NCBI RefSeq assembly: GCF_004102945.1
Contig: NZ_CP019384.1
Span: 660,001-692,000, forward strand
Source of the DNA: Candidatus Velamenicoccus archaeovorus
GTDB lineage: Bacteria > Omnitrophota > Gorgyraeia > Velamenicoccales > Velamenicoccaceae
DNA length: 32,000 nt
Reading direction: 5' to 3'
A program made the translations under genes and the position numbers. Below the pieces are notes generated by a model. That model saw only the letters and a list, made by a program, of their open reading frames with translations. It was not told the DNA's origin and made no database searches. Each line of letters opens with the position of its first letter. Position 1 is the stretch's first letter. Below, piece after piece: positions 8,538-31,173 of the stretch.

Positions 8538-8545
8538 CATTCACC

Positions 8546-11979: not shown

Positions 11980-11996
11980 ATTCTTAGGAGCAAATA

Positions 11997-15551: not shown

Positions 15552-15553
15552 TC

Positions 15554-15736: not shown

Positions 15737-15783
15737 CTTAGCCAGTGTTAAGTAGCGAGAATTAAAAAGGAGGTATTTTAGAC

Positions 15784-16708: not shown

Positions 16709-16742
16709 TAAGCTGTCCGACATTGACCTTGAAAGGAGGTGA

Positions 16743-16799
16743 ATGGCAATGGGGATTATGTGGCGATCAAAAAAAGGTAAAAAACGAAAGGGACGATAA
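16743..16799 (+). CDS. polybasic micro-ORF 1 (18 aa: MAMGIMWRSKKGKKRKGR)
   Basis: AGGAGG at 16734-16739 just upstream. C-terminal KKGKKRKGR matches KKAKKRKK of micro-ORF 2. Confidence 0.3.
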   Translation: MAMGIMWRSKKGKKRKGR

Positions 16800-17030
16800 A
16801 CCTTCATGGATCAATGGGCCTCCTGCAATCCCAGAAAAACACTGGAGGCCTATTGCTGAATTCGATTATTTTCAGGCTTATACCGTAATCCGAATGATAA
16901 TTTGGCATAAAATTTAATGTTACGGTTTGAGCCTTGGTTTTTATAAACTTTCGGAAGATGCTAGAACATATCAGATTGGTCGATGAGATCTATTGGCTGG
17001 ATATTTAAAACAAGTTAAAGGGGATATGAA

Positions 17031-17348
17031 ATGATGAAGAGAAAGAGGTTCGGGATGCTTAAACTGATTGTGGCTATTCTTCCGAAAGGAAAAATAAAGG
17101 CAATAATGCCAGTCCTTAAAGACACTGGGATTTTTGGCGCTACTGTGCTTTCCGGTAAGGGGCTGTGTACAGAAGCTGGTAGACGCACAATTGGTTTACA
17201 GATTGGTTCATGTAGAGAGATTTTAATTCTTCTGACGCTGGATGTTAACAGAGAGAAACTCATCAAAGTACTGGAAAAACATGGTAACTTAAAAGAGCCG
17301 GGACAAGGTATTCTTTTTGTAATGAATGTCAACCGTGTTGTTGGATAA
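17031..17348 (+). CDS. P-II (GlnB)-like signal transduction protein
   Basis: SD AAGGGGA. LKLIVAILPKGKIKAIMPVLKDTGIFGATVLSGKGL...EILILLTLDVNREKLIKVLEKHG...GQGILFVMNVNRVVG follows the beta-alpha-beta P-II pattern with a T-loop-like insert. Confidence 0.6.
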   Translation: MMKRKRFGMLKLIVAILPKGKIKAIMPVLKDTGIFGATVLSGKGLCTEAGRRTIGLQIGSCREILILLTLDVNREKLIKVLEKHGNLKEPGQGILFVMNVNRVVG

Positions 17349-17365
17349 AAAGGGAGGGGGTAAAA

Positions 17366-17782
17366 ATGACAAGTAAAACTATATATATTACCGATAATGA
17401 TATGAGAAGATTACGGGAATTGATAATGGTTGCGAGACAATTTAAAAAAGAAGAAGAGAAGTATTTGCAGGATTTAGAAGCTGAGCTGAACAGGGGCAAA
17501 ATCATAAAATCTCAAGATATTCCGCAGGACATTATCACGATGAGCTCGGAAGTTCATTTGCGAGATTTAAACACAAAAGAAGAAATAACGTATCAATTGG
17601 TTTTCCCCGATCAGGCCGATGCTAGTCAGGGGAGAGTTTCAATCTTAGCGCCGATTGGTACGGCATTACTCGGATATAGCGTTGGGGATATTATTGAATG
17701 GAAAGTGCCTGCAGGTGTTGCGAAACTGCAGGTTGAAAAAATCATTTATCAACCGGAAGCGAACGGCGAAGATCTCTCTTGA
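17366..17782 (+). CDS. rnk: regulator of nucleoside diphosphate kinase (Rnk), GreA/GreB C-terminal-domain family
   Basis: SD GGGAGGGGG. End-to-end resemblance to E. coli Rnk as recalled from memory, not database-checked (ITDNDMRRL..., DIITMSSEVHLRDLNT, VSILAPIGTALLGYSVGDIIEWKVPAGV, YQPEA). Confidence 0.85.
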   Translation: MTSKTIYITDNDMRRLRELIMVARQFKKEEEKYLQDLEAELNRGKIIKSQDIPQDIITMSSEVHLRDLNTKEEITYQLVFPDQADASQGRVSILAPIGTALLGYSVGDIIEWKVPAGVAKLQVEKIIYQPEANGEDLS

Positions 17783-17821
17783 TATTATAAGCGTTAAAAA
17801 ATAGAAGGGGGGTGAGAACCG

Positions 17822-17872
17822 ATGGGGGATAAGGTCGCAAATAAGAAGAAGGCTAAAAAGAGAAAGAAGTAA
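17822..17872 (+). CDS. polybasic micro-ORF 2 (16 aa: MGDKVANKKKAKKRKK)
   Basis: SD AAGGGGGG at 17805-17812. It is followed directly by the 15-bp-stem hairpin. Confidence 0.3.
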   Translation: MGDKVANKKKAKKRKK

Positions 17873-17878
17873 TGTTTT

Positions 17879-17923
17879 TACAAGAATCCTTCCGTAATGC
17901 CTTATTGCGGGAGGATTCTTGTA
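17879..17923 (+). terminator. long hairpin, candidate terminator closing the cargo operon
   Basis: TACAAGAATCCTTCC (17879-17893) pairs with GGGAGGATTCTTGTA (17909-17923) across a 15-nt loop. Only TTT follows, so the termination call is tentative. Confidence 0.4.
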
Positions 17924-17944
17924 TTTACGAAATATGTTGTTAAG

Positions 17945-18245
17945 TGGCACTGGGTCCTTGGAAGGGGGCTTGGGTGAGGGTCGGGCGAGGCGCAAGGAGC
18001 CAGTGATAGTGGTTAAAAAAATCGATGTCCATGTCCATCACTTTTGGGGTTTGGGCATAAGTGGTCAACCCGGCCAAAATGAGCGTCCAGCGACGGGAAA
18101 TAGGCGATTTTAGGGGTGTTTTAGGGACTCCCGGGAAGGCCGAAAAAGGGCATTTTGATGGACATGGATGGACGCGCAAATGTCCATCCCGGCACAAATT
18201 TACGGCATTTCTGACAAATATCTTGCTTTATTTATAAGATGATAT
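17945..18245. repeat. noncoding module, copy 1 (diverged direct repeat of 26840-27130)
   Basis: Blocks shared in the same order with copy 2: GGGTCCTTGG (17952-17961), the identical 23-mer GGGTGAGGGTCGGGCGAGGCGCA (17972-17994), CAGTGAT (18001-18007), ATGTCCATGTCCAT (18025-18038), GAGCGTC (18081-18087), AGGGGTGTTTT (18112-18122). The word ATGGACAT occurs 5 times in both orientations. Confidence 0.8.
18211..18238 (+). promoter_or_regulatory. candidate promoter of the controller-mod-res operon (CTGACA-N16-TATAAG)
   Basis: CTGACA at 18211-18216 and TATAAG at 18233-18238. The predicted start lies a few nt before ATG 18249 and there is no SD, so the controller mRNA may be leaderless. Confidence 0.35.
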
Positions 18246-18248
18246 AAA

Positions 18249-18452
18249 ATGTTAAATATGGATTTAATCAAAGAACTCGATTCCTACCGCTTGGATAATA
18301 AGATCACTCAACAGGCCCTCGCAGAACAGCTTGGCGTGTCTTTTGTGACCGTCAATCGATGGTTTAACAACAAGACCAAGCCCAGCAAAATTCAACAATT
18401 TCAGATTGAGAAGTTTTTGAAGGGCAAGACCGGGAGCAAGAAAAAAATATGA
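18249..18452 (+). CDS. Xre-family HTH protein (R-M controller-like)
   Basis: ITQQALAEQLGVSFVTVNRWFNNKTKPS is an HTH_3 motif. 4-nt ATGA overlap with mod. Confidence 0.8.
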   Translation: MLNMDLIKELDSYRLDNKITQQALAEQLGVSFVTVNRWFNNKTKPSKIQQFQIEKFLKGKTGSKKKI

Positions 18453-20119
18453 GCGCATACAGCACTTTGTCTAAAGAGCAGTTAATTGCCGAGATTAAGC
18501 GCCTGAAAAAAGGGAAGAAGTTCGGGCTACTTTGGGAGGATAAACCCGAGGATGTCGCAGAACTTTGCAAGACGAAATTGCCTGTCTTGGTGGATGTCGA
18601 GGACAAGGAAATTTCCGATGGGCCTCACGATCCCACAAATATCCTGATTGAGGGTGACAATTATCATGCCTTGTCGGTTTTGAACTACACGCACCCAGGT
18701 AAAATTGATGTTATTTATATCGATCCACCTTATAACACGGGGGCTAAAACTTGGCGATATAACAATAATTACGTAGAGAAAGACGACGCTTATAGACACA
18801 GTAAGTGGTTATCGTTTATGAGCAAACGACTGAGGCTTGCTTATAAGTTGTTGCCAAGTGACGGTTTTTTGATTTGCGCTATTGATAATAATGAATTGTA
18901 TACAATAGGTTTATTGCTGGACGAAATTTTCGGAGAGAACAATAGGCTTGGATTGGTTACGGTTTTGCATAATCCTAAAGGGCGTAATCAATCAAAATTC
19001 TTTTCAGAAAATAGCGAGTTTATGTTGATTTATGCGCGCAATATAGACCGGGTAAGTTTTAACAAGGTTGCTCTAAATGAAGAAGTCCAGCTCACTTTTG
19101 ATTTAGAGGATGAACAGGGCAAATATAGGCTGGAACCGTTTATGCGTGCAAGAACCGTTTGGTCAAGAGAAAATAGGCCGTTAAATTGGTATCCTATATT
19201 CGTTAGTAAAGATTTAACCCATATAACATCTGAGAAAATTGCTGGGTATCACGAAATATACCCTATTACCAATAATGGCAAAGAAATGGCATGGAAGAAT
19301 ATAAAAGAAACGTTTGATCAGCTCAACGATGGCGACTATTTTACTGCAAAAAAAGATAATGATAAAGTTACAATTTATCATAAATATCGAGAGCAACAAG
19401 TGCTGAAGAATGTTTGGCTGGATCAAAAGTATCAATCCGAATTTCATGGCACTAATTTGTTAAAGAGGATGCTTGGGAAAAATATATTTGACTATCCTAA
19501 GTCGCTTTATTTATTGATCGATATTCTTAAACTAACTACAAAAAAAGATTCTGTTGTTCTGGATTTCTTCGCCGGTTCTGGAACCACAGGACATGCGGTA
19601 TTGGAGTTAAATAATAATGATGCCGGTTCCCGCCGGTTTATAATATGTACTAATAATGAAAATAATATTTGTTCCGATGTTTGTTATCCTCGTATAAAGA
19701 AAGCCATTACTGGTTACAAGGATTCCAAGGGTGAAAAGGTTGAGGGCCTTGGTGGAAACCTGAAGTATTTCCGCACGGACTTCGTTAACGCTGATTCTAC
19801 CGATAAGAATAAAAAGAAATTGACCGAGATGGCCACGGAGATGCTCTGCCTCAAGGAAAGCACCTTCGAGAAGATAACGAGCAAAAAGGCGTTTAAGATT
19901 TATAAGAATACCAACCACTACACCGGCATAATCTTTGACCAGATAGCGATTCCTGATTTCAAGGAAGCCATTGCCAAGTTAAAGGGCAAATTCAGCGTAT
20001 ATGTCTTTTCGCTCGGGGATGATTCTTTCGAGGATGAATTTAAGGATATTAAGCAGAAGGTCAAGCTGTCGCCCATTCCCGAAGTCATCTTACGGGTTTA
20101 CAGGAGAATTTTTAAATAA
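18449..20119 (+). CDS. mod: type III R-M DNA methyltransferase (Mod, beta-class N6A/N4C)
   Basis: Motif IV DVIYIDPPYNTG lies N-terminal to motif I LDFFAGSGTTGHAV, with a variable region between them. Confidence 0.9.
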   Translation: MSAYSTLSKEQLIAEIKRLKKGKKFGLLWEDKPEDVAELCKTKLPVLVDVEDKEISDGPHDPTNILIEGDNYHALSVLNYTHPGKIDVIYIDPPYNTGAKTWRYNNNYVEKDDAYRHSKWLSFMSKRLRLAYKLLPSDGFLICAIDNNELYTIGLLLDEIFGENNRLGLVTVLHNPKGRNQSKFFSENSEFMLIYARNIDRVSFNKVALNEEVQLTFDLEDEQGKYRLEPFMRARTVWSRENRPLNWYPIFVSKDLTHITSEKIAGYHEIYPITNNGKEMAWKNIKETFDQLNDGDYFTAKKDNDKVTIYHKYREQQVLKNVWLDQKYQSEFHGTNLLKRMLGKNIFDYPKSLYLLIDILKLTTKKDSVVLDFFAGSGTTGHAVLELNNNDAGSRRFIICTNNENNICSDVCYPRIKKAITGYKDSKGEKVEGLGGNLKYFRTDFVNADSTDKNKKKLTEMATEMLCLKESTFEKITSKKAFKIYKNTNHYTGIIFDQIAIPDFKEAIAKLKGKFSVYVFSLGDDSFEDEFKDIKQKVKLSPIPEVILRVYRRIFK

Positions 20120-22338
20120 TGCGACTTAAAAACTATCAAATTAACGCCATCAATGAGCTTTTGGGTAAATCCAAGAAGCTGTTTACTTACTCCGATAATA
20201 AAAAGCTGATTTTTAAGGCTCCGACCGGCTCGGGCAAAACTGTAATGGTGGCTGAGTTTTTAAAGCAGTTATGCGAGGATAAGGAGGTTAAAGCTCCGCT
20301 TTCGTTTATCTGGACAGCTCCACGTCAGTTGCACGGGCAGAGCAGGGACAAGTTGGATTCTTATTATGAGCCAAGCCGGGCCCTGAGGTGCTCATTCTTT
20401 GAGGATTTGGACGACAAGCGTATTGATCAAAACGAAATTCTTTTCTTTAACTGGGAGAGCATCAATAAAGAAGGCAATATTTATATCCGGGATAATGAGC
20501 AGGACAATAACCTGACCAGTGTTCTTGCCAACACCCGGGAAGAAGGTCGGACGATCATTCTCATTATCGATGAAAGCCATCATCACGCCACAAGCGAAAT
20601 ATCGCAAAATTTAATCCGGGACATTAACCCTAAATTGACGATTGAGGTCTCGGCCACGCCGGTCTTGGAAAGTCCGGATGAGATCGTTTCTGTCCAGTTG
20701 GAAGACGTCAAGGCCGAAGGCATGATCAAAAAGGCCGTCGTACTCAATCCAGAGTTTAATAACGTCATAAAAGACGCCAAGGTGCAAAGCCAATTAAGCA
20801 AACAATCCGAAGAATTGGTTATCGAGCTTGCCCTAAAAAAAAGAAAAGCCCTCAAGGAAGCCTACGAAAAGGAAAAGGTAGACATTAACCCTCTGGTGCT
20901 TGTGCAGTTGCCGGATCGTCATACCAGTCTTGAAGACGTGGTAAAAGACAAGGTTATAGCGATTCTAAAGGACAAGCACAAAATAACGACCGAAAACGGC
21001 AAGTTGGCAATTCATCTCTCAGGAGACCATGAAAATTTAGAAAATATCTCAAAAGCAGACAGTGAAGCGGAAGTCTTAATTTTTAAGCAGGCTCTCGCTC
21101 TTGGCTGGGATTGTCCCCGGGCCCATATACTGGTATTGTTTCGTGACTGGAAAAGCATTGTTTTTTCAATCCAGACTATCGGCAGGATCATGCGTATGCC
21201 CGATCCGGATTATGGGCATTACACGAATGAGATTTTGAATTACGGATACATCTTTACCAATCTGGACGATATAGAAATCCAAGAGGATATCGCCAGAGAC
21301 TATATTACCGTCCACACGTCCCGGCGTCGTGGGGATTATACGCCTTTGGGCCTGCCGTCCTGCCATTCAAAGAGGCATCGTGAAAAGACAAGATTATCCA
21401 CGTTATTTATTAAAGTCTTCTTGCAGGAAGCTAGCGCTTACGGCCTTGCCAAGAAAATACAAAAGAAATCTAAAGGCTTGAGTGTAAATTTCATCTCAGA
21501 TTATAAAGCGGAAAGTGTTGACGCTCTCGTGGGGCAGAAAATTGCCGGTGACAAAGGTATCAAGATGACCGGATTTGATCTGCAAAAGTATTTTGACTAT
21601 TTCGTGCGGAAAAATCTTTCTCCGTTTCATCCGGAAGACCGATCAATCGGCAGGTTGAAAGAAGCTATCTACTATTTTTTTGACCAGATGCTGGACATGA
21701 AATATGAGGACGTGCAGGAAGAAATCGTCGAGATGGTACTTAATGAGGATAATATTCAGCATTTCGTCAATATTATCGACCAGACTAAGACAAGGTATCT
21801 GGATCATGTCTCAAAGCGGGAAAAAGAACTTGATTATGACGATAGCTGGGATGTTCCGGAAAGTATAAGTTACAGCTCGGCCTATACGGAGATTGATCAC
21901 AAGTTGAAATCAATAATGCAACCGTTCTTTTGCAATGAGACTTCTGTCATAGAGATGGCGTTTATCAGTTTTCTTGAAAAGCAAGGGCGCATTCATTGGT
22001 GGTTTAAGAATGGCGACCGGGACGCGGTTTACTTCGCTGTGCCTTATCAGGAAAACGGCGACAGGAAGCCATTCTACGTTGATTTTATTGTCCAAATGAA
22101 AGACGGTTCAACGGGCCTTTTCGATACAAAGTCGGGTTTAACTCGGCAGGTGGCTGGGACGAAGATTGATGGACTTAACGCCTATATCAAAGAGCAGAAT
22201 AAGAAAGGCAAAAATCTATTCGGCGGGATCGTCACAAACACTGATCCTCGTAAGTTTACGGGCCGTTGGATTTCTTTTAATAAAGACGGCAAGGAATTAT
22301 CGACCAGTAATGATAACTGGGAGAATTTGGATTTATAA
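20119..22338 (+). CDS. res: type III restriction endonuclease (Res, helicase + PD-(D/E)xK nuclease)
   Basis: Walker A FKAPTGSGKT. DEAH-like IIDESHH. QALALGWDCPRA and QTIGRIMR helicase motifs. C-terminal FYVDFIV...LFDTKSG nuclease-like motif. TAATG overlap with mod. Confidence 0.85.
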   Translation: MRLKNYQINAINELLGKSKKLFTYSDNKKLIFKAPTGSGKTVMVAEFLKQLCEDKEVKAPLSFIWTAPRQLHGQSRDKLDSYYEPSRALRCSFFEDLDDKRIDQNEILFFNWESINKEGNIYIRDNEQDNNLTSVLANTREEGRTIILIIDESHHHATSEISQNLIRDINPKLTIEVSATPVLESPDEIVSVQLEDVKAEGMIKKAVVLNPEFNNVIKDAKVQSQLSKQSEELVIELALKKRKALKEAYEKEKVDINPLVLVQLPDRHTSLEDVVKDKVIAILKDKHKITTENGKLAIHLSGDHENLENISKADSEAEVLIFKQALALGWDCPRAHILVLFRDWKSIVFSIQTIGRIMRMPDPDYGHYTNEILNYGYIFTNLDDIEIQEDIARDYITVHTSRRRGDYTPLGLPSCHSKRHREKTRLSTLFIKVFLQEASAYGLAKKIQKKSKGLSVNFISDYKAESVDALVGQKIAGDKGIKMTGFDLQKYFDYFVRKNLSPFHPEDRSIGRLKEAIYYFFDQMLDMKYEDVQEEIVEMVLNEDNIQHFVNIIDQTKTRYLDHVSKREKELDYDDSWDVPESISYSSAYTEIDHKLKSIMQPFFCNETSVIEMAFISFLEKQGRIHWWFKNGDRDAVYFAVPYQENGDRKPFYVDFIVQMKDGSTGLFDTKSGLTRQVAGTKIDGLNAYIKEQNKKGKNLFGGIVTNTDPRKFTGRWISFNKDGKELSTSNDNWENLDL

Positions 22339-22365
22339 TTTGCTATCGCTATAGGATAACTCGTT

Positions 22366-22977
22366 ATGGATAAAAAAAATAAACTCGACTGCGTTACGGA
22401 GTTCTGGAAAAAGTGGTCAGCGTATGAGAAGGCCTCCAGTGAGTGGGTGTTGACTATTGAAAGGCTCGGTCTTTCATCAATCGATTCCTATGATTGGCTG
22501 ACAAAAGATGATGTATTCCACAAGTATGAGAAAACGCTAAAGAAGCATAAAGTAAAAAAGCCTGACTTGGGAAATCTTTATCAGGAAGCCAATCAAGCGG
22601 CTATCCCCATTATAGAATATCTATTCGGACCGAATGAAACACCGGTTATTCCTGAGCTTCCAACGTGGCTTCCCGGAGGCTATGCTGAATGGTGTGAAAA
22701 GACGAAAGATATGCAACTTGGGATGATGCACCGCATTATGGGCGCAAGAAACAGGATAATGTCTTCTGAGTTCAAAATCAGGCCGAAATTAATCCCGCGT
22801 AGCGGCTGGTCAAGTCCGTATCCCATAACGCATTGGGCAAAGGTATTTAATATAAGCCGTAAGACCATGCAAAACTGGCTTGAGAATAATCAGTTGTTAG
22901 CCCGCAAGATCGGCAGTAAATGGCAGATCGCCGTTGAAGAGCTTCCTACCGCTGACGATCAGGATTCCTCTCAGTAA
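22366..22977 (+). CDS. hypothetical protein with C-terminal excisionase-type HTH, fourth gene of the R-M operon
   Basis: Starts 27 nt after res with no intervening terminator. The C-terminus ITHWAKVFNISRKTMQNWLENNQLLARKIGSKWQI is HTH_17-like. The N-terminal ~150 aa are unrecognised. Confidence 0.6.
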   Translation: MDKKNKLDCVTEFWKKWSAYEKASSEWVLTIERLGLSSIDSYDWLTKDDVFHKYEKTLKKHKVKKPDLGNLYQEANQAAIPIIEYLFGPNETPVIPELPTWLPGGYAEWCEKTKDMQLGMMHRIMGARNRIMSSEFKIRPKLIPRSGWSSPYPITHWAKVFNISRKTMQNWLENNQLLARKIGSKWQIAVEELPTADDQDSSQ

Positions 22978-23011
22978 CAATCCCGTACAAAAAATAGCAG
23001 TAATCCTCACT

Positions 23012-23040
23012 AAAACGCCTTAGGGCGTTTTTTCTTTTTT
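23012..23040 (+). terminator. intrinsic terminator
   Basis: AAACGCC-TTAG-GGCGTTT stem-loop followed by TTTTCTTTTTT. Confidence 0.65.
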
Positions 23041-23148
23041 AAGCACAATCATTGTAAAAATTTGGGTAATTTTGGGTAAAGCTGGGAAGGCGTGTTTTTT
23101 TCAGTGATAAACTTCAAGTAGAAAAGAAATTCGCGAGGAGGATATCAC

Positions 23149-23388
23149 ATGGAAAGTTTGTTGACCGTTGAACGGCTTATGACCCATCTCAATCTAAAGC
23201 GAAGCCAGATTGATTATCTGGTGAATAATTGGCTTATTCCGCATTTTCGGCTTCCCAACGGAGAAGTCATGTTTCGCGCCTCGGAGATCGAGATTTGGCT
23301 TTTTACCTGTAGTGTTCCCAGCAATAACCGGAAATTACGAAAAATACTTAACGAAACACGGATGTGGCGATGCAAACAGCAAGATTAG
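23149..23388 (+). CDS. AlpA/excisionase-type HTH protein
   Basis: SD GAGGAGG. LLTVERLMTHLNLKRSQIDYLVNNWLIPHFRLPNGEVMFRASEIEIWL is the typical small HTH_17 pattern that precedes primase genes in integrative elements. Confidence 0.65.
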   Translation: MESLLTVERLMTHLNLKRSQIDYLVNNWLIPHFRLPNGEVMFRASEIEIWLFTCSVPSNNRKLRKILNETRMWRCKQQD

Positions 23389-25727
23389 ATTTTAACAAGA
23401 TATCTTTAATCATTCCGGCCGAGATTAGATCTCAAAAGGCGTGGGTGGGCTACGTCACCAGACAGAACAACGGCCGAATAGATAAGATCCCGATGAACGT
23501 TATGACGGGCGCGCCTGCCAAAAGTAATAACTCGGCAACTTGGGCGGATTATGAAACCGCTGTTGACTTAGCGGTTCAGCGCAATTATGCGGGTATTGGT
23601 TTTATGTTTCAGCCGCCGTATGTGGGTGTGGATATTGACCACTGTATGAAAGATGGCGTGATCGCGCCGTATGCGTTGGATATTTTAAATGCGCTTAACT
23701 CATATTCCGAGTATTCGCCTAGCGGCACCGGCATTCATATTCTTTGTAAAGGTGAAATCGCTCGGGCCTGCAAAATTTCAAAGATCGGCCTTGAGATTTA
23801 TACCAAGGGCAGATTTTTTACCGTTACCGGCAATCGCCTTGAAAATTATCCGGCAGAAATTAACGATTGCACTGATGCACTTAAAACGATATTCAGCCGG
23901 TTTGTAGATAAAGGGCCTTCGGATGACATTTTCGCCGTAATTGCCAAGAGCCAAGACGCAGGGAAATTTCAGCGTTTATATTCAGGTCAGTGGCAGAACG
24001 ATTACCCGTCTCAAAGCGAAGCGGATCTGGCGTTGTGTAACAAACTGGCCTTTTGGACAGGCAAAGACACCGGACGTATGGATTTATTATTCCGGCAGTC
24101 GGGCCTTATGAGACCTAAGTGGGATGAAAGGCATTTTGGTGACGGTAGGACTTACGGGCAGAGCGTTATTGAGAAAGCCGTCCAAGATGCCGAAAACGTG
24201 TTTGACGCGTCAAGATCTCCAAAACAGAAGAAACTCACCCAAGGCGAAATCATCACCCGAGATTGCGAAGAAACGGTTAGCGAATATCTGCGCGACCAGC
24301 AGGGCAATCCTTACGTTGTTCTGCCGTTTGATAAACATCTTGAGATTTGTCAAACAAGCAGTTCCCGTTTCAGGAATTATTGCGCTATGCGTTACCGTGA
24401 GGATTTTGGCCATCCTCCGGGAAGCGAAGCCATAAAGCAGGCGAAAGTCCAGATAGAGGCGAAGTGTGAAGGTGGAAGGCAAGTCGAGCTTTATAACCGT
24501 GTCGGCTGGCATGACGGGGCTATTTATTATGACCTTACGACCAAAGATTGGCGCGGGGTGGTTATTACCAAAGACGGCTGGGAGGTGGTTTTCTTGCCGC
24601 CGATATTTAAGAGATATCCGCATCAGGCAGAGCAGGTTATGCCGGTCAAGGGTTGCGATCCTAAAAAGCTATTGGAGTTTTGCAATATCAGTAAGGATGA
24701 CGCTTGCCTTTTTATGACCGTGGTAGCGGCATTTTTTATTCCCGACATTCCCCATGTCATACCGGTGCAAATCGGCGAGCAGGGAACAGGCAAGTCCAAC
24801 AACTCCCGGCTCATTAAAAGTTTGTGCGATCCTTCCAAGGTGATGTCCATTTCTGTGCCTAAGGATTTAGAGCAGGCGCAGATGATCGCGGATAAACACT
24901 GGTTGAATAATTTCGACAATTTTTCTCGCGTGTCTGAGTGGTTCAGTGATTTTTTATGCCGGGCAGTAACAGGCGAGGGAGATATGAAGCGATCGCTTTA
25001 CACCAATGATGAGGAATTCATCAGGACCTATCGCCGATGTTTCGTTTTAAACGGTATCGGCAGTGCTATATGCCGTCCGGATCTATTAGACCGTTCAGTT
25101 ATCTTCGATATACCAATCTTAAAAGAGACAAGGCCGGAGAAAGTCATCGCTTACGAATGGCGGGCTTCGCTTCCCGGTATTCTCGGCGGTTTCTTTTCGG
25201 CAATTTCAAACGCAATGGCAGTTATTGACGGTGTGTCCGGGCATGAGCGTTTTAGGATGTCGGATTTCGCGCAGTGGGGTGCGGCGTTGTCACAGCATTT
25301 GGGATTCTCCCGGGAGGAATTTTTTAAGCGGTATCAGCAATCGGTTGATCATAAATGGGAGGACACCGCAGAAGAGAGCACATTCGCGCAAAAGTTGGTC
25401 TATCTTGTGGAGTCAAACGGAGGCGAGTGGGCGGGTTCTGCGACCACACTGCTTGAGAGCATTAAGCCGGAAACCGGTTTTGATAAGACGCTACCCGGCA
25501 ACGCCCGGGCACTTGGTTCAGAGCTTATGCGCATCGCTCCGGTTATGCGCAGTGTGGGCATTGATATTTTACGTCCGGAAAAGCGTGAAGCCGGTACCGG
25601 CAGGAAGCTGGTTATCTTACGCAGGATAAAGGGTAATTCGCTTTTTAAAGGCAGTGTGAACGAAGGCGTGAATGAAGGTGAACAAGGAAAGGATTTTTGT
25701 GATGAAGACGATCCAAGGCCGTATTAA
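23370..25727 (+). CDS. primase-polymerase / helicase replication protein (Prim-Pol N-terminus, PriCT-like region, P-loop NTPase)
   Basis: GIGFMF...VGVDIDHC...SPSGTGIHILCKG...GRFFTVTGN (prim-pol). SQSEADLALCNKLAFWTGKD...LFRQSGLMRPKWDE (primase C-terminal motif). Walker A GEQGTGKS. The track start 23364 is a GTG and ATG is at 23370. Confidence 0.85.
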   Translation: MQTARLDFNKISLIIPAEIRSQKAWVGYVTRQNNGRIDKIPMNVMTGAPAKSNNSATWADYETAVDLAVQRNYAGIGFMFQPPYVGVDIDHCMKDGVIAPYALDILNALNSYSEYSPSGTGIHILCKGEIARACKISKIGLEIYTKGRFFTVTGNRLENYPAEINDCTDALKTIFSRFVDKGPSDDIFAVIAKSQDAGKFQRLYSGQWQNDYPSQSEADLALCNKLAFWTGKDTGRMDLLFRQSGLMRPKWDERHFGDGRTYGQSVIEKAVQDAENVFDASRSPKQKKLTQGEIITRDCEETVSEYLRDQQGNPYVVLPFDKHLEICQTSSSRFRNYCAMRYREDFGHPPGSEAIKQAKVQIEAKCEGGRQVELYNRVGWHDGAIYYDLTTKDWRGVVITKDGWEVVFLPPIFKRYPHQAEQVMPVKGCDPKKLLEFCNISKDDACLFMTVVAAFFIPDIPHVIPVQIGEQGTGKSNNSRLIKSLCDPSKVMSISVPKDLEQAQMIADKHWLNNFDNFSRVSEWFSDFLCRAVTGEGDMKRSLYTNDEEFIRTYRRCFVLNGIGSAICRPDLLDRSVIFDIPILKETRPEKVIAYEWRASLPGILGGFFSAISNAMAVIDGVSGHERFRMSDFAQWGAALSQHLGFSREEFFKRYQQSVDHKWEDTAEESTFAQKLVYLVESNGGEWAGSATTLLESIKPETGFDKTLPGNARALGSELMRIAPVMRSVGIDILRPEKREAGTGRKLVILRRIKGNSLFKGSVNEGVNEGEQGKDFCDEDDPRPY

Positions 25728-26034
25728 AGGTGTGACCATTGTGACTGTGGACGGGCTACGTTCACAGCTTTGGTCACGGATTATCCTCATAATCTACAAG
25801 AGGATGTGGGATTCATGAATATTGTGAATGTCGTTTCTTTCCTTTTCTAAAAAAGAAAAGAGAAAGAGGGAAAGCCCCTTGTAGGGGGTCATTAGAGGCA
25901 GTTAGAAAAATAAGGGTAGTCAATGTTCACAACGTTCAGAGGGTAGAAAAAGGGGAGGTGAAAGATGTAGGCAAACGTAAAAACCAAGGCAGAAGAATAG
26001 TAATTCAAATCAACAAATACAGGAGGAACGAAAA
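25728..26034. other. candidate replication origin / operator region downstream of the primase-helicase gene
   Basis: Inverted repeat GTGACCATTGTGAC (25732-25745) and GTTCACAGCTTTGGTCAC (25760-25777). Further TGTGAA/GTTCACA words at 25823-25828 and 25925-25931. AT-rich palindrome CTTTCCTTTTCT-AAAAA-AGAAAAGAGAAAG at about 25838-25866. Confidence 0.35.
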
Positions 26035-26718
26035 ATGAAACTGAATTTTTTAAACGTGTTAAAGGGCAAAAGCACGCCGGAAGAGATCGCCGAGCAGATT
26101 GTGGCGCTTGAAGAAAAGCAGAAGCTCTGCGAGCAGGAAAAAACTGAAGCTAAAGAGAAAGCAAAAGAAATCAGAAGCCGGGTTATGTGCGGCGAGAGGA
26201 TTAATCCCGAGGCTGTGAAGCTAGCGGATTTGGCGTTGGAGGAATGCAATATCAATCTCGATGTCGTTGCCGAGAGCCTCGCTAAACTCAAGACGAAAAT
26301 GGAGGAAGCGTTGACGGAGAAGCGGGACGAAGAGATGAAAAGGCTCATCGAAGACCGTAAAGCCATGAACAGAGAGAAGGAGACGTTGATCCTCGATCTG
26401 TGGAAGGCGAAGGGCCGGTTGTTTGCCTTAGCATTTGCTATCTACGGTCATCCAGAGACTACCCGACGGCATTTGGAAGATTACCCCGCGTTTAGCCCCA
26501 GTTTAGGAACAGAGCCGCACAGTATTTTTCATGCTGAGAAAGAAAAGGGTATCGCCGAGCTTCGCAGGCCGACAACGGCAGATATCGAGGAGGATATCCG
26601 TGTCAGGGATCACTGGGTATCGCATTTCGACCTCGAGCAGGAGATTAATAACCTTATGAAAAAATATCGGCCTGAGCCCGCAAAGCCAGTGGAGCAGGTA
26701 GAGTTGGTTGCTGAGTAA
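26035..26718 (+). CDS. hypothetical coiled-coil protein
   Basis: SD AGGAGGA. 227 aa. The Glu/Lys-rich helical N-terminal half has no recognisable catalytic motif. Confidence 0.6.
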   Translation: MKLNFLNVLKGKSTPEEIAEQIVALEEKQKLCEQEKTEAKEKAKEIRSRVMCGERINPEAVKLADLALEECNINLDVVAESLAKLKTKMEEALTEKRDEEMKRLIEDRKAMNREKETLILDLWKAKGRLFALAFAIYGHPETTRRHLEDYPAFSPSLGTEPHSIFHAEKEKGIAELRRPTTADIEEDIRVRDHWVSHFDLEQEINNLMKKYRPEPAKPVEQVELVAE

Positions 26719-26839
26719 CAATCTAATGCGGAGGAACCGGATCGATGTTCTTGTTAACTTCTTCCATCGCGAAAGTTTTGCCAGATAAATGCGTCTGGCA
26801 GAGGGCGACACCTTCCGCCCTCCTCCGCACGCATTTTGT

Positions 26840-27130
26840 TTACGGGTCCTTGGCAGCCGGTGTCGGGTGAGGGTCGGGCGAGGCGCAGTTTGTCAGTGAT
26901 CTAAAATTTTGAAAAAGTGATGTCATGTCATATGGGGTTATCCGGAGAGCGTCAAAATGTGGTCAGGAAGGCTCAAAACAGGCATTTTTTGCGGAAAAAG
27001 TGTCAATTTTTGGGTATTTCGATGGTTTTGAGGGGTGTTTTGACTGACATTCACTGACACGAGTTATGTCAGTATGTCAGTGAAACCGGACATCATACGA
27101 CACGAAAAATGTCCTAATGTCCTAATGGGT
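26840..27130. repeat. noncoding module, copy 2
   Basis: GGGTCCTTGG (26844-26853), the identical 23-mer (26865-26887), CAGTGAT (26894-26900), ATGTCATGTCAT (26920-26931), GAGCGTC (26947-26953), AGGGGTGTTTT (27031-27041). Copy-specific words: ACTGACA(T/C) x2 facing ATGTCAGT x2 (27043-27081), and ATGTCCTAATGTCCTAATG (27109-27127). Confidence 0.8.
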
Positions 27131-27140
27131 AGCGGTGAAA

Positions 27141-27338
27141 ATGAGCAAGGATGTACGCACAAATAATGATCAGGCGGTTAGCCTTAGGGGCTGGGATGCT
27201 TTAGAGATAAAGCTAAAAGGCCGCGGCCTATCCAGCATTGAGATTCAGGAGGCGCGTAAATCCTTTTTTGAAGGCATTGAGTTGTTGTCAAAAATGTTCC
27301 TGTCCTCGTATGACGCGGAGAAGAAAACCCTTGTATAG
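27141..27338 (+). CDS. hypothetical small protein
   Basis: ATG at 27141 (the track start 27135 is a GTG). 65 aa, helical, no motif recognised. Confidence 0.4.
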   Translation: MSKDVRTNNDQAVSLRGWDALEIKLKGRGLSSIEIQEARKSFFEGIELLSKMFLSSYDAEKKTLV

Positions 27339-27386
27339 GGTTGTATAATACGGTATACTGGGCACTAATCTTAGAGGGTGCCAATT

Positions 27387-27593
27387 ATGAAAACTTACAC
27401 CATGACAGAGACGGCAAAAAAGCTGGGTGTTCACCGGCAGACCATGATCAATTGGATCCGCAAGGGTTGGGTTAAGCCCAAGCGCGACTACAAAGACTGG
27501 CCCGTGTTTACGGACGAGTGTATCGCCAAGATTAAAGAATGGCGGGAGACACTAAAGGATACTAATGAGGGTAGCGTTATACACAAGAGTTAG
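27387..27593 (+). CDS. excisionase/MerR-type HTH protein, paralog of 8546..8737
   Basis: SD AGAGGG then ATG at 27387. YTMTETAKKLGVHRQTMINWIRKGWVKPKRDYKDWPVFTDECIAKIKEW. It overlaps the recombinase start by 29 nt. Confidence 0.75.
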   Translation: MKTYTMTETAKKLGVHRQTMINWIRKGWVKPKRDYKDWPVFTDECIAKIKEWRETLKDTNEGSVIHKS

Positions 27594-29250
27594 CACAGAG
27601 GATCAAGCTCGCGAAGGATTTTCGCTGGAGGTGCAGAGAACGTATCTTTTGCAATATGCGAAGAACTTCGGCTGGGATGTTTTTTGCAGTATGTCGGGCC
27701 GGGATGTTTATATGGATGACGGCTATTCCGGCGGCAATATGGATAGACCGGCATTACAGAGGCTTCTCTTCGATGCCCGCAATAAGCAGTTTGATTTGGT
27801 CTTGGTGTATAAACAAGATCGCTTAAGTCGTCGGCTCAAGGATCTGTTAGGATTGCTTGAGGAGATTGATTCTTTGGGTGTTGGCTATAAATCAGCGACT
27901 GAGCCGTTTGATACTACATCGAGCGCGGGCAAAATGGCGATTCAAATGCTTGGCAGTTGCGCGGAATTTGAGCGTAATCGTTTAGTTGAGCGCGTTTTTC
28001 CGGGTATGGTTGTAGGTGTTAAGCGGGGGCATTGGCAGGGAGCGCGTTACGCGCCGTATGGCTATCGTTATAATAAGGAAGCCAAGAAACTGGAAGTCCA
28101 CCCTGAAGAAGCGAAAATCGTCAAAGAAATTTTCTCGATGTATATAAATGGCAAGAGCACTTCGCAGATTGCCGGGCATTATTACATGCTTGGTATCCCT
28201 TCGCGGCAGGGCGGGAAGTTTTATACTAAATTCATCTCGGATATCCTTAAAAATAAAGTGTATTTGGGAATGCTGGTCTGGAATAAGCGGCGTTACGATA
28301 CAAAGATCAAGACTAAAAATGGCGAGGGAAAGGGATATTGCTATATCAAGAATGATCCTTCCAAGATCATCGAGGTCCCGAATACGCACGAGCCGATTAT
28401 TTCGCAAAGGGAGTTTGACGAGGCTTCCACGCTTCTCAAGCGAAACCGCACTAATGGCATAGTTAGATTCAGGAATAATGTTTATCATCTTTCCGGTATA
28501 TTAAAATGCAATGAATGCGGCGGTAATTATCGCGGGATGACGCATATCGTTAATCACCGCACCAAAATGAGGCGTCCGTGGTATAGATGTTCGTCTAGAG
28601 GGATTCGGTATATTAAGTGCAACAATAAATCCGTGACTGCTGATGCTATCAATAAGCAGGTCTGGGATATCGTTGAAGTTATTAGAAAAAATCTTCACGT
28701 GCTGGAAGAATTAGGCGACATGATTCGGCTTAACGCTTCTGAGCCGGAGCGGGTATATATGGAGCAGTTGGAGGAGAAGGAAGCGCTTCTTAAAAAGAAC
28801 GTGGAGAAGCAAAGGGCTATATACGAATTATTTTCAGAAGACAAAATAAATATGGGGCTTTATAAGGACAGAGCCGAGCTTTTAAGTAATGAGGAGAAAA
28901 AACTAAAGCAGGATATCAAGGCCATTCATCTTAAGATTCTGGACAAGCGCAATTCCGTCAATTTGGTGAAAGCGACGCAGGATTTCCTTTTAAGGTTGCG
29001 CAGTACGCCCGAAAGCGACAATCACCAATTGGACTACCTTATAAAGACGTTCATGCGGATTGTCTTTAAGTCGATTACTATCCAGAATCAGGAAATCGTG
29101 AAGTTTGAGTTGAATGAGCCTTGGAAGACTTGCTATGAAGAGGGGATGAAATGGTTGAAAACGAACGAAAAGACGACAATACAGGCGATTCCGGAGGCAA
29201 AAGCCCGAAGAAGCTACGTGTGCTTTTGCGCACCTTCGGATGTCAGATGA
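27565..29250 (+). CDS. large serine recombinase 2
   Basis: MRVALYTRVSTEDQAREGFSLEVQ. ATEPFDTTSSAGKMAIQMLGSCAEFERNRLVERV. YAPYGYRY. Zinc-ribbon CNECGGNY...WYRCSS...KCNN. Coiled coil. The last 100 nt overlap the miaB ORF in another frame. Confidence 0.92.
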   Translation: MRVALYTRVSTEDQAREGFSLEVQRTYLLQYAKNFGWDVFCSMSGRDVYMDDGYSGGNMDRPALQRLLFDARNKQFDLVLVYKQDRLSRRLKDLLGLLEEIDSLGVGYKSATEPFDTTSSAGKMAIQMLGSCAEFERNRLVERVFPGMVVGVKRGHWQGARYAPYGYRYNKEAKKLEVHPEEAKIVKEIFSMYINGKSTSQIAGHYYMLGIPSRQGGKFYTKFISDILKNKVYLGMLVWNKRRYDTKIKTKNGEGKGYCYIKNDPSKIIEVPNTHEPIISQREFDEASTLLKRNRTNGIVRFRNNVYHLSGILKCNECGGNYRGMTHIVNHRTKMRRPWYRCSSRGIRYIKCNNKSVTADAINKQVWDIVEVIRKNLHVLEELGDMIRLNASEPERVYMEQLEEKEALLKKNVEKQRAIYELFSEDKINMGLYKDRAELLSNEEKKLKQDIKAIHLKILDKRNSVNLVKATQDFLLRLRSTPESDNHQLDYLIKTFMRIVFKSITIQNQEIVKFELNEPWKTCYEEGMKWLKTNEKTTIQAIPEAKARRSYVCFCAPSDVR

Positions 29251-30398
29251 ACGTCCGGGATTCCGAGGTCGTCAAGGGCCTGTTGTCGGCGGAAGGCTAC
29301 GAGATGACGGATGATCCGAAGAAGGCGGATGTGGTCTTGTTTAATACGTGTTCGGTGCGGGACCATGCGGAGCAGCGGGTCTGGTCGGGCATCGGACTTT
29401 TGTCGCGCAAAAAAAACCGGCCCTTGATCGGCGTTCTTGGCTGCATGGCCCAGAGTTATCAGGCTGATATCAAAAAACGCGTCCCGGCTGTTGATCTTGT
29501 CGTTGGCCCGAGTGAAATCGATAACATCGCGCTATATCTTGAGGAAGCGCTGCGCACCAAGAATGTCTTAGCGGTGAAGGAGCGTGCGCGCGCAGAGGAG
29601 ATTTATCACACCGGCTTTTATGACAAAAAAGACCATGCGTATATCGTCGTCTCCGAGGGATGCGACAATTTCTGTTCCTATTGCGTCGTGCCGTATGTGC
29701 GGGGCCGTCTGCGCCACAGGCCGGCAGATGAGATCGTCAGGGAAGCCCGGGCGGCTGTTGATGCCGGCATAACCAGCATCACCCTCCTTGGACAAAATGT
29801 CAGCGCCTATGGCACAGAGTACACCTGCCTGCCGGACAGGCAGGGAGAACAGAGTACACCTGCCTGCCGGACAGGCAGGGAGGACAGAGTTTGCGGATTT
29901 CCGGAATTGTTGGAGAAAGTCGCCAAGGTCAAAGGGCTCAAGAGTTTGTCGTTTATCACTTCGCATCCGAAAGACACAAAAAAAGAATTGTTTGAGGCCA
30001 TGCGGGATATCCCCGTTGTCAGGAAATATCTCCACGTGCCGGCCCAATCAGGGTCGGACAGGGTCCTGGCCATGATGAACCGGGGGTATACGGCTGAAAA
30101 ATATCGCGAACTTGTAGACCTCTACCGCTCCATTGTATATAATGGGGAATTGAGCTCGGACTTTATCGTGGGATTTCCGGGCGAAAGCGAGGAGGATTTC
30201 CGCGCAACGCACGATCTGGTCAAAAGCGTGCGTTTTGATTCGGCTTTTATCTTTAAGTATTCCACGCGGCCGCACACGAAGGCCGCGGAGTTCCCCGACG
30301 ACGTCCCGCAGGCCGCCAAGAAACGCAGGCATGCAGAACTGCTGGAGCTCCAGAAAAGCATCTCTCAATCCTTAAAGAAACATGCGAAAAAGGCATAA
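29151..30398 (+). CDS. miaB: MiaB-family radical-SAM methylthiotransferase (UPF0004 + radical SAM; no TRAM domain visible)
   Basis: TFGCQMNVRDSE, NTCSVRD and LGCMAQ (N-terminal cluster cysteines). CDNFCSYCVVPYVRG (CxxxCxxC). LLGQNVSAYG. ITSHPKD. HVPAQSGSD. SSDFIVGFPGESEEDF. SD AGGGG then ATG 29151. miaA lies 0.9 kb downstream. Confidence 0.85.
   Translation: MVENERKDDNTGDSGGKSPKKLRVLLRTFGCQMNVRDSEVVKGLLSAEGYEMTDDPKKADVVLFNTCSVRDHAEQRVWSGIGLLSRKKNRPLIGVLGCMAQSYQADIKKRVPAVDLVVGPSEIDNIALYLEEALRTKNVLAVKERARAEEIYHTGFYDKKDHAYIVVSEGCDNFCSYCVVPYVRGRLRHRPADEIVREARAAVDAGITSITLLGQNVSAYGTEYTCLPDRQGEQSTPACRTGREDRVCGFPELLEKVAKVKGLKSLSFITSHPKDTKKELFEAMRDIPVVRKYLHVPAQSGSDRVLAMMNRGYTAEKYRELVDLYRSIVYNGELSSDFIVGFPGESEEDFRATHDLVKSVRFDSAFIFKYSTRPHTKAAEFPDDVPQAAKKRRHAELLELQKSISQSLKKHAKKA
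29815..29890 (+). repeat. 35-bp tandem repeat (2 full units + 6 nt) inside miaB, each unit containing an 8-bp-stem palindrome
   Basis: CAGAGTACACCTGCCTGCCGGACAGGCAGGGAG(A/G)A at 29815-29849 and 29850-29884, with one mismatch, then CAGAGT. Inner palindrome CCTGCCTG-CCGGA-CAGGCAGG. Confidence 0.9.
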
Positions 30399-31173
30399 TA
30401 TTATCTTTGCCCCGGTCCTCGGGGCGCTGTTGTCGGTTTGGGTGACGGCTTGCGCCGCGGCGCAGGCAGAGGGCGTCTTGGATAAGGCGCAACTTTTGTT
30501 TTTGAAGAGGCAGTATGTGCAGGCGATCGACGAATGCGCCAAAGCAGTCAAAGAGCATCCTGACAATCCGGAGGTTATCTCCCAGGCCAATTATCTGACG
30601 GGTGCCAGCTATGTCAACCTCTTTGATTTCCTGACTGCCAAGAAGAACTTCCGGGCCATCGTCGACCAGTATAGCAGGTCTCCTTATTATGAGGATGCCT
30701 ATATGGGGCTTGGGGACATCGAGTTTTTGCAGGAGAATTACACCGAAGCCTTGAAGATTTATGAACAGTTCTTGCGCACAGACCCGTCGCCTAGGCGGCG
30801 CGCGACCCTTTATTTCCGCCTTGCAGAGATATACCTTAAACAGGGTGACCAGGCGTCTTTCAGGAAATATTACGACAAGCTCCAGAAGGAATTTCCCCTT
30901 TCTTTTGAGGCCAAAGACGCGCGCCGCCTCCAGGGATCCGGGTTTTATTATACGGTGCAGGTCGGCGCATTCACCAATTTCGATAATGCGCAGGAGTGCA
31001 TCAATCAGCTTAAGGCGAAGGGATACAATGTTTATTCCGTCCTGTGCATGTTGTCCGGTAAAAAACTGTGTCGTATCCGCGTCGGCCGCTATGCGACACA
31101 GAAAGAGGCTGAGGAAGCCAAAAGGAAATTGGAGTTGGACGGATTCCTTGCCAAGGTTTTTCCTTTGGAGTGA
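30382..31173 (+). CDS. TPR + SPOR domain lipoprotein (YbgF/CpoB-like N-terminal half, peptidoglycan-binding SPOR C-terminus)
   Basis: Signal/lipobox-like LLSVWVTAC. TPR-like helices (YLTGASYVNLFDF..., YEDAYMGLGDIEFLQENYTEALKIY). SPOR signature YYTVQVGAFTNFDNAQECINQLKAKGYNVY...CRIRVGRYATQKEAEEAKRKLE. Confidence 0.8.
   Translation: MRKRHNIIFAPVLGALLSVWVTACAAAQAEGVLDKAQLLFLKRQYVQAIDECAKAVKEHPDNPEVISQANYLTGASYVNLFDFLTAKKNFRAIVDQYSRSPYYEDAYMGLGDIEFLQENYTEALKIYEQFLRTDPSPRRRATLYFRLAEIYLKQGDQASFRKYYDKLQKEFPLSFEAKDARRLQGSGFYYTVQVGAFTNFDNAQECINQLKAKGYNVYSVLCMLSGKKLCRIRVGRYATQKEAEEAKRKLELDGFLAKVFPLE

Follow-up and report, generated by a model that had tools for sequence, protein, structure and literature searches.

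Tandem serine-recombinase elements that probably rebuild the 5′ end of miaB in an Omnitrophota genome

Overlap of a recombinase gene with miaB

The window analyzed here, 32,000 nt of the genome of Candidatus Velamenicoccus archaeovorus (Omnitrophota; NZ_CP019384.1, positions 660,001-692,000), contains a gene for a large serine recombinase (LSR), LSR2, whose 3′ end overlaps the methylthiotransferase gene miaB (Table 1). Both genes lie on one strand and share 100 nt in different frames, and the Shine-Dalgarno-like run AGGGG of miaB is formed by the LSR2 codons for YEEG. A first-pass annotation of the same sequence had given the LSR2 end, the miaB ATG at 29151, the AGGGG at 29141-29145 and the 100-nt out-of-frame overlap, all of which hold. 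LSR2 lies at the right end of an element, E2, which follows an element with a related recombinase (E1 and LSR1), and GC content is low (~40%) in a block extending from about 6.3 kb to 29.2 kb, against 51-63% on either side. Very probably, E1 and E2 are two members of one family inserted in tandem at the 5′ end of miaB, with recombinase exchange at a TG dinucleotide and the 5′ end of miaB rebuilt by the element.

Two details of the first-pass annotation need revision. It had let the similarity between LSR1 and LSR2 end at YEE, but BLASTP aligns both proteins through residue 558 with weak matches (VC..PS); the tails retain this residual similarity because both overlie miaB-like sequence. It had also noted a shift in base composition across the overlap; the edge between element and host is sharper than such a drift and, from junction comparisons, coincides with the TG at 29241-29242. 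Three features escaped it: the spread of the trait through a large family, the prior occupation of the target site (a tandem), and the host origin of the recombinase stop codon. A single open frame upstream of miaB is non-significant by itself ((61/64)^28 ~0.26). The recurrence of the arrangement, complete with Shine-Dalgarno-like run and start codon, at 37 independent genome loci is far beyond chance.

Table 1. Coordinates of the principal features of the miaB region in the window
Feature	Position	Strand	Remarks
E1 left junction (attL)	6290-6324	+	degenerate native miaB 5′ arm (..GTTCTTCGGTTTTCCATCGGTT); putative core TG 6323-6324
Element E1	about 6325-10397	+	~4.1 kb
LSR1, large serine recombinase	8764-10464	+	566 aa; identical to P0220 (BU251_02785, Ca. 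Velamenicoccus archaeovorus)
miaB-type 5′ end embedded in E1, orphaned by E2	10320-10397	+	ribosome-binding site GAGGAGG; GTG 10320; reads VQHIDESRGYEKNKAKKGSVYIRTIG
Core TG, E1/E2 junction	10398-10399	.	P-arm(E1)-TG-P′-arm(E2)
E2 left end, P′ arm (GCCGTTGTCTACCTTATAGACAC...)	10400-10464	+	recombinase frame encodes 21-aa extension
Element E2	10400-29240	+	18.8 kb; all listed open reading frames of at least 100 aa co-oriented with miaB
LSR2, large serine recombinase	27565-29250	+	561 aa; TGA stop 29248-29250
Shine-Dalgarno-like AGGGG for miaB	29141-29145	+	5-nt spacer to ATG 29151
Element-borne miaB start and first 30 codons, MVENERKDDNTGDSGGKSPKKLRVLLRTFG	29151-29240	+	final ~35 nt double as P arm of attP
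Chimeric miaB	29151-30398	+	415 aa; N-terminal methylthiotransferase and radical-SAM domains, no TRAM
Inferred crossover dinucleotide TG	29241-29242	.	bases 1 and 2 of the Cys31 codon in GCQMN
Host B′ arm (TCAGATGAACGTCCGGGATTCCGAG...)	29243-29272	+	holds final two LSR2 codons and stop TGA 29248-29250

Boundary between element and host DNA

When the window was compared by BLASTN with contigs of MiaB homologues, host homology started at window 29232 in every relative, and the recombinase-free relatives L001 and L007 have short, unrelated N-termini (MIRKNVYIKTYGCQMN and MTNKSDTQKKIFLATYGCQMN, respectively). Therefore, positions 29151-29231 are not host DNA. Had island-free relatives carried 29151-29240 in front of miaB, the N-terminus would belong to the host; this sequence is missing in L001 and L007, and the reading of an element-borne N-terminus survives.

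To place the crossover, 40 junctions were aligned. Up to the Gly codon, the junction sequence tracks the recombinase subtype; from base 3 of the Cys codon onward, it tracks the host. All eight LSR2-type loci have ..GTGTGCTTTTGCG(C/T)ACCTTCGG(A/C). At the left end of E2, twelve differing left arms are joined via TG to one sequence, GCCGTTGTCTACC.., and the third base of the Gly codon takes four forms among them. The patterns at both ends of E2 therefore place the exchange at the TG of the Cys codon, at which the twelve different left arms and the eight right arms meet. In all loci next to miaB, the LSR stop is found 15 nt past base 1 of the F/Y codon, and the last two codons and the stop of LSR2 are supplied by the host.

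The attP of E2, reconstructed from its two arms, reads ..GTGTGCTTTTGCGCACCTTCGGA-TG-GCCGTTGTCTACCTTATAGACAC.., and one example of a native attB is AAAATCTTTTTGATAACCTACGGA-TG-CCAGATGAACGTCCGGGATTC. By inspection, this attP shows weak two-fold symmetry about the TG, with CGG/CCG at positions 2-4 on either side and GTGT/ACAC ~20-23 nt out; in direct comparison, the two arms match at 11 of 35 positions.

The MiaB N-terminus travels with the element

Seven genome loci carry LSRs that are 86-100% identical to LSR2. The leader MVENERKDDNTGDSGGKSPKKLRVLLRTFG is identical in five of them (L011, L012, L013, L015, and L020) and differs only within the first ten residues in L014 and L016; the last 21 residues of the N-terminus (GDSGGKSPKKLRVLLRTFG) are unchanged in L011, L012, L013, L015, L016, and L020. 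The MiaB bodies of the LSR2-type loci are just 38-48% identical to that of the window. In the extreme case of L011, the LSR is 100% identical to LSR2 at the protein level, and the MiaB only 48%. Conversely, MiaBs from different hosts that are 70-89% identical to the window's carry another leader, VQHIDESGGYGKNTVKKGSVYIRTIG (VQHIDES..SVYIRTIG type), which accompanies the LSR1-type recombinase and can also be read out of frame in the LSR1 of the window (10320-10397). On these comparisons, the 30-residue N-terminus evidently follows the type of recombinase rather than the host. In the predicted chimeric MiaB, a peptide such as ..LLRTFGCQMNVR would span the junction.

The other end of the element tells the same story. 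An exact-match scan found the left arm of E2 in 11 metagenome contigs, each copy 93-99% identical over the aligned part and all with different flanks. In at least six of them (L092, L094, L097, L099, L100, and L101), the flank consists of a start codon and 10-14 codons ending in T(Y/F)G, followed by TG. These six flanks are the amputated native 5′ ends of miaB, now fused to WPLSTL-stop. In L096, the flank is the recombinase end of another family member (LSR 70% identical to LSR2), that is, a second tandem. The claim that the element integrated in the 5′ coding region of miaB and brings a new start and N-terminus is thus supported by comparisons of both junctions and leaders.

These data bear on whether the first 30 codons could be host sequence, into which a recombinase without its own stop simply reads. 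The recombinase does take its last two codons and stop from host DNA. However, host homology begins at 29232 and not at 29151, the upstream sequence of the island-free L001 and L007 is unrelated and their native N-termini are short, one N-terminus (identical in five loci, near-identical in two) heads MiaBs only 38-48% identical to the window's, and native miaB starts are displaced to the other end of the element. We regard a host origin of these codons as having almost no chance of being correct, and prefer an element-borne N-terminus.

Class of the recombinases

LSR1 and LSR2 are 43% identical, and Pfam assigns Resolvase, Recombinase, and Zn_ribbon_recom to both. The resolvase catalytic domain typical of large serine recombinases (PF00239) is found at E=8e-34 in LSR2 and 2.5e-38 in LSR1, and PF07508 and PF13408, for the recombinase and zinc beta-ribbon domains, are present in each. 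The motif YTRVSTEDQ is invariant across the recombinase alignment A2, and recombinase residues ~380-480 are rich in E/K/L. The attachment sites are short: the junctions share just TG and flanking similarity, with no long direct repeat. Directly upstream of the LSR gene in both E1 and E2 is a small HTH_17/MerR gene (27378-27593 in E2, with a 71-aa product), a candidate recombination directionality factor. The best NCBIfam matches of LSR2 are the Ccr models, CcrB with 195.8 bits and CcrC with 157.7 bits, against a cutoff of 900 each; LSR2 is not a Ccr recombinase by these equivalog cutoffs.

Distribution of the arrangement in the recombinase family

The comparison covered 46 genome loci with a recombinase at least 40% identical. 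At 37 of the 46, the recombinase gene extends into miaB and has its stop at one and the same host TGA, within CAR-ATG-AA; the contig is truncated in five, the recombinase is joined to an element end (P-TG-P′) in three, and it abuts an MtaB-like paralogue (LGCKVN) in one. The miaB frame of the 37 overlap loci opens 24-105 nt upstream, within the recombinase gene. Omnitrophota, Elusimicrobia, and WOR-1 are among the hosts of these loci, and the overlap is absent from all 34 LSR loci that are more distant. Among the 120 closest LSR protein clusters, 100 end in x-(D/A/V/G)-(V/A)-(R/K), which is the translated host arm. A purine-rich run resembling a ribosome-binding site stands a few nucleotides before the embedded start in nearly all element-bearing loci (weak in L040 and L044); the conserved recombinase codons for YEE provide this run in the LSR1 and LSR2 types.

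Some members depart from this pattern. At L050 (2339-4033), a family recombinase adjoins an MtaB-like methylthiotransferase paralogue, 27% identical and with the N-terminus ..MRVKFLTLGCKVN, and the recombinase stop lies 39 nt, not 15 nt, past the F-codon position. This arrangement suggests retargeting to the homologous site of a paralogue. At L103 (3998-10595), the family recombinase P0173 lies right behind TraE, CagX, TrbI, and a coupling protein of a type IV secretion system. From this context, some family members are probably conjugative; E1 and E2 lack such genes, and the family spans several element types. The Elusimicrobia locus L053 (1776-2042) has a recombinase frame open for only 88 codons before the host TGA, with the embedded miaB start intact; the recombinase may be decaying there and the repaired miaB kept. 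In L005, L006, L008, and L041, contigs end exactly at the recombinase/miaB junction or a few bases from it, as would fit a population in which occupied, empty, and tandem sites coexist.

Identity and fold of the rebuilt MiaB

Pfam finds UPF0004 and Radical_SAM in the product downstream of LSR2. It scores 379.6 bits against the NCBIfam equivalog model for MiaB (TIGR01574, cutoff 355.3), and the RimO and MtaB models stay under their cutoffs. Its closest homologues come from Candidatus Velamenicoccus archaeovorus and other Omnitrophota, and miaA (IPPT) lies two genes downstream of miaB in the relatives L001, L002, and L004. No TRAM domain was matched by Pfam in this MiaB, and the TIGR01574 match covers profile positions 3-376 of 437; close MiaB relatives end at the same point and also lack TRAM. 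The product is best called a TRAM-less MiaB-type enzyme.

C31, C67, and C98 as well as C171/C175/C178 are invariant in the MiaB alignment A4, and C31 is the first host-encoded codon. Element residues 22-30 align with residues 18-26 of the solved Bacteroides uniformis MiaB (7mjz). In the AlphaFold model (mean predicted local distance difference test score, pLDDT, 83.5), residues 1-17 are predicted to be disordered and residues 23-29 form strand beta-1 (RVLLRTF, pLDDT 91). Every subtype retains the beta-1 pattern of three hydrophobic residues, R/K/E, T, F/Y/I, and G despite divergent DNA, and C31 and beta-1 are conserved in frame across all loci. A start downstream of 29250, which the first-pass annotation had named as refuting its reading, finds no support: it would drop beta-1 and C31, the first cluster-ligand Cys. 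Initiation at the Met of GCQMN, where gene callers put it for P0001, P0003, and P0015, would likewise delete this Cys. Gene callers thus shorten such miaB genes to the Met of GCQMN, and the overlap is missed.

Many serine-recombinase elements disrupt their targets. Integration might likewise inactivate miaB, with a fortuitous frame in a decaying remnant or with restoration on excision only, as for sigK/skin and spsM/SPbeta; indeed, genes are called 'disrupted' on insertion by Durrant et al. (PMC10083194). The absence of TRAM from the window's MiaB could be counted for inactivation, but TRAM-less MiaBs also occur in element-free relatives (P0007 and P0009). A decaying remnant is also at odds with an open frame and a start codon in 37 of 37 loci, with a ribosome-binding site in nearly all, and with a beta-1 pattern kept while the DNA diverged. 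Moreover, the MiaB bodies behind long-resident elements are intact, with change dominated by third positions (12:8:60 in the Elusimicrobia group), and E1-type elements appear to be vertically inherited across a clade in which miaB is 79-94% identical in DNA. Inactivation is therefore very unlikely, and we retain the reading that the gene is rebuilt.

Two further features of this miaB were noted. A 35-nt unit is repeated 2.2 times (97% matches) at window 29814-29890 and encodes an insert, ..CLPDRQGEQSTPACRTGREDR.., that is variable or absent in close relatives and corresponds to the low-confidence loop 225-245 of the model; the period is odd in not being a multiple of three, although the whole remains in frame. 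In addition, miaB overlaps the gene of a TPR+SPOR protein (30382-31173) by 17 nt, and the MiaB and TPR+SPOR parts are joined in a single 653-aa protein in the homologue P0040.

Elements E1 and E2 in tandem

The cargo of E2 includes a Na+/H+ exchanger, a two-component system, PhoU, response regulators, and a GreA-like protein. The type III restriction-modification pair is complete (N6_N4_Mtase and ResIII helicase, 18449-22338) and is followed by an NrS-1-type primase-polymerase-like protein of 787 aa (23364-25727), and the right end holds the small HTH_17/MerR gene and then LSR2. Neither virion structural or packaging genes, as in a prophage, nor a type IV secretion system with relaxase, as in an integrative and conjugative element, is found among the ten largest open reading frames of E2, and its left end has no match in the viral collection. 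E1 carries a response regulator (6502-7098, minus strand), a Phage_rep_O-like gene (7572-8084), a small helix-turn-helix gene, and LSR1, at a GC content of ~40% against 55-63% in the left flank. In L002, L004, and L009, only an E1-type element, with the gene set of E1, stands between the flanking gene and miaB.

Homology to E1 (in L004 and L006) ends at 10399, and the E2 end starts at 10400 in 11 other contexts. Through the insertion of E2 at the right junction of E1, LSR1 is deprived of the stop that the host normally supplies, and 22 of its codons (GRCLPYRHSMADLAEALIGAD plus stop, hence 21 residues) run into the E2 end. The E1-type N-terminus that is orphaned here also heads MiaB in P0002, P0008, and P0017 and in L008 and L009 (VQHIDESGGYGKNTVKKGSVYIRTIGCQMN). 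The simplest history, as far as these junctions tell, is that E2 integrated into the right junction of an older E1. The junction half of E1 (..TATATTAGAACCATCGGT) resembles the native miaB arm (e.g., ..TTTTTGATAACCTACGGA). Since the right arm mimics the 5′ end of native miaB, an occupied site remains target-like, which explains the presence of E2 in the E1 junction.

An unrelated host, L028, has an E1-type element whose homology to the window starts at TGTCAAGAG, at the left end of E1, and the left arm diverges among L002, L004, and L009. An alternative left junction at 6457-6466 (GACGGTTGAGCCG) had the appeal of a symmetric P-arm partner and a frame-shifted MLRSIIA.. start upstream; it was rejected, as L028 is homologous on both sides, from 6322 onward. 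The 84 nt between the flanking gene and E1 (6240-6323), where the old miaB promoter and start are expected, contain no usable start and have an in-frame stop; if still a promoter, this segment would now run antisense into the response-regulator gene of E1. Further upstream of the island (window 20-5353) lies a very large repetitive surface-type protein, more than 1777 aa and extending off the window. In the relatives L002 and L009, it has 3180-3203 aa. Next to it comes a protein of 270-310 aa that has no Pfam hits.

E1 itself is mosaic. Compared with the E1 of L002, the left part (6325-7856) is 96% identical, the recombinase modules (7857-10399) only ~65%, and the embedded miaB leaders differ. 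This pattern indicates module exchange among elements, plausibly by recombination within tandem arrays; target mimicry would let related elements stack in tandem and exchange modules. P-TG-P′ junctions, representing either a circle or a tandem, are also found in L039, L043, L046, L102, L103, and L104. The P-TG-P′ junction of L096 was considered as an excised E2 circle and rejected in favor of a tandem, the LSR there being only 70% identical to LSR2. Excision of E2 is predicted to give the circle junction ..GCGCACCTTCGGA-TG-GCCGTTGTCTACC.. and the restored E1 junction ..ATATTAGAACCATCGGT-TG-TCAGATGAAC... A scan for the motif AC.-T/A..-GG.-TG upstream in the genome loci gave two plausible attL sites of other subtypes (L033 and L045). 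Its other matches, inside a RepO-like gene, were dismissed as chance. L032 has the first cargo gene of E2 and no recognizable junction.

Proposed mechanism and two forms of the recombinase

At the level of sequence, comparison of the loci establishes the boundaries, the crossover position, the element-borne N-terminus, its family-wide conservation, and recent mobility. We propose that each element bears its LSR gene at the right end, with attP spanning the end of that gene, and that the recombinase exchanges strands at the TG of the Cys codon in the conserved miaB sequence ACC-T(T/A)C-GGN-TGY-CAR-ATG-AA (T-F/Y-G-C-Q-M-N). Integration splits miaB: the original promoter and start, with some 7-21 codons, remain at the left end of the element and run on into a short dead-end peptide (..TYG-WPLSTL*), and from Cys31 onward the gene is joined to the right arm of the element, which would serve as half of attP, as the last ~30 codons of the recombinase, and, out of frame, as ribosome-binding site, start, disordered leader, and replacement beta-1. 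The essential first part of MiaB would thereby be rebuilt, and the recombinase obtains its final two codons and stop from the host. One 90-nt stretch would then be under three constraints, as recombinase binding site, as recombinase C-terminus, and as replacement N-terminus with translation signals for a host enzyme.

With attP inside the recombinase gene, the enzyme could exist in two forms. In the excised state, LSR2 would cross into the other end of the element and gain ~21 residues (..SD-GRCLPYRHSMADLAEALIGAD); integration would swap this tail for two host-coded residues and the host stop. The P′ arm resembles the host B′ arm but has TGG or TGT in place of TGA. The recombinase frame of the excised form would accordingly run on for about 17-25 codons past the junction, and ~19 LSR clusters in the database read past it, most with an R-W... 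tail. The tail motif (S/T)M..(L/I)AEA(L/I/A) is kept in five lineages (E2, L039, L043, P0212, and P0237/8), and where the DNA can be compared (E2, L039, L043, and L102), the codon changes are synonymous or conservative. The tail may be a real, integration-dependent C-terminus, for which these data are only suggestive, and it could act as a sensor of the integration state that biases direction, stability, or expression of the recombinase. We give this reading as a whole, the two forms included, less than an even chance. If true, tail and miaB mimicry would form a self-contained switch not described for serine integrases.

Expression, start codon, and selection

All large E2 open reading frames point toward miaB, and read-through transcription from the element is therefore the likely source of its expression; no terminator-like site was found between LSR2 and miaB. 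Substitutions were counted by miaB codon position (1:2:3) in six well-aligned groups, miaB position 1 being the third position of the recombinase. The ratio is 47:47:64 in the overlap and 353:197:157 upstream, where the counts of the E2-type group are inflated by indels. The recombinase third-position excess vanishes in the overlap, with a tilt toward the miaB frame; the overlap counts are informative only against the upstream recombinase pattern.

Several points tell against a tandem insertion with a rebuilt miaB, or at least leave parts of it less secure. The third-position enrichment in the miaB frame of the overlap is non-significant alone (chi-square about 3.7, 2 df). A scan for the sigma-70-type consensus, the only type covered, found no promoter in the 3′ half of LSR2, and we infer from the sequence that miaB is transcribed, that it is translated from ATG 29151, and that its product is active. 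The TG crossover fits the two-base crossover of serine integrases and is placed from junction comparisons. The left arm of E1 has decayed (it lacks a start codon, contains an in-frame TAA, and has gained a base), which makes this boundary less certain. Lastly, an excised E2 circle was not found in the metagenome scan with the P′ arm, which gave attL sites and the L096 tandem.

A further point of this kind is that miaB could start at GTG 29220 or TTG 29226. Both codons are element-borne, and the mechanism would be the same with an overlap of only ~25-31 nt and no acidic/basic leader. In favor of such a start, the Cys of native MiaBs is commonly preceded by a short stretch of 7-14 codons, residues 1-17, predicted to be disordered, vary among element subtypes, and gene callers chose internal starts for P0006 and P0010. 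Yet the best ribosome-binding site is that of ATG 29151 (AGGGG, 5-nt spacer), GTG 29220 is preceded only by GAAGAAGCTAC, and a purine-rich run stands upstream of the first in-frame start, rather than of a later one, in almost all subtypes. An internal start is on balance unlikely, and ATG 29151 is the preferred start.

Comparison with known systems

Restoration of the target is known from tyrosine-integrase islands at tRNA and tmRNA genes and from phage 21 and e14 at icd, which carry the 3′ end of the target, leave the gene intact, and form tandem arrays. E1 and E2 resemble them in carrying a target end, in keeping the gene intact, and in leaving an occupied site that can still be targeted. 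In those islands, however, a 3′ end is restored, with no new promoter or start, a long identical core takes the place of the 2-nt crossover, and there is no dual coding. The Ccr serine recombinases of SCCmec insert cassettes in the 3′ coding end of rlmH/orfX without destroying the gene, and tandem or composite cassettes occur. Large serine recombinases, insertion in the coding end of a conserved RNA-modification gene, and tandems are common to SCCmec and E1/E2, but the SCCmec target is a 3′ end, and the recombinase genes of SCCmec lie inside the cassette, with no overlap with the target.

In SPbeta (SprA/spsM), skin (SpoIVCA/sigK), A118/comK, and XisF/fdxN, a gene is broken and its function returns only on excision. 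E2 shares with these the enzyme class and an attB in coding sequence, and it has a candidate counterpart of their small accessory directionality protein, but its target is rebuilt while the element stays integrated. Mycobacteriophage integration-dependent immunity and the SSV1-type integrase involve tyrosine integrases, with a crossover in an element gene that alters the repressor or splits the integrase. As with LSR2, integration changes the C-terminus of an element protein, but no host gene is repaired there.

The closest parallel is provided by the dusA-associated integrases (DAIs), whose elements bring a new 5′ end for the target, with a first beta strand of their own, while the displaced original is found at the opposite junction (Farrugia et al. 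2015; PMC4482086). E2 likewise replaces the 5′ end of its target and leaves the native end at the other junction. The DAIs are tyrosine recombinases that target dusA, and their replacement is not described as lying out of frame within the integrase gene. With its serine recombinase and miaB target, E2 works like the DAI islands and is not a member of them.

The LSR survey of Durrant et al. (2022) found that diverse LSR clusters can share one conserved site in coding sequence (PMC10083194). It covers isolate genomes, does not mention miaB or radical-SAM targets in its main text, and treats targets as disrupted (PMC10083194). No prior description was found in the literature on miaB with serine recombinase or attB, or on Omnitrophota with serine recombinase, a search of incomplete coverage that is not proof of novelty. 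The family described here is large, previously undescribed, and directed at a defined, highly conserved target in uncultured phyla, and it offers many natural attP/attB pairs with a known core that could be used for integrase engineering. The strategy of target restoration is thus known; what is new is the combination of a serine recombinase, an attP in its own gene, a dual-coded start, a host-supplied stop, and miaB as target. Target-restoring integration, known for tyrosine integrases, thereby gains a serine-integrase form and, in the 5′ end of miaB, a further target.

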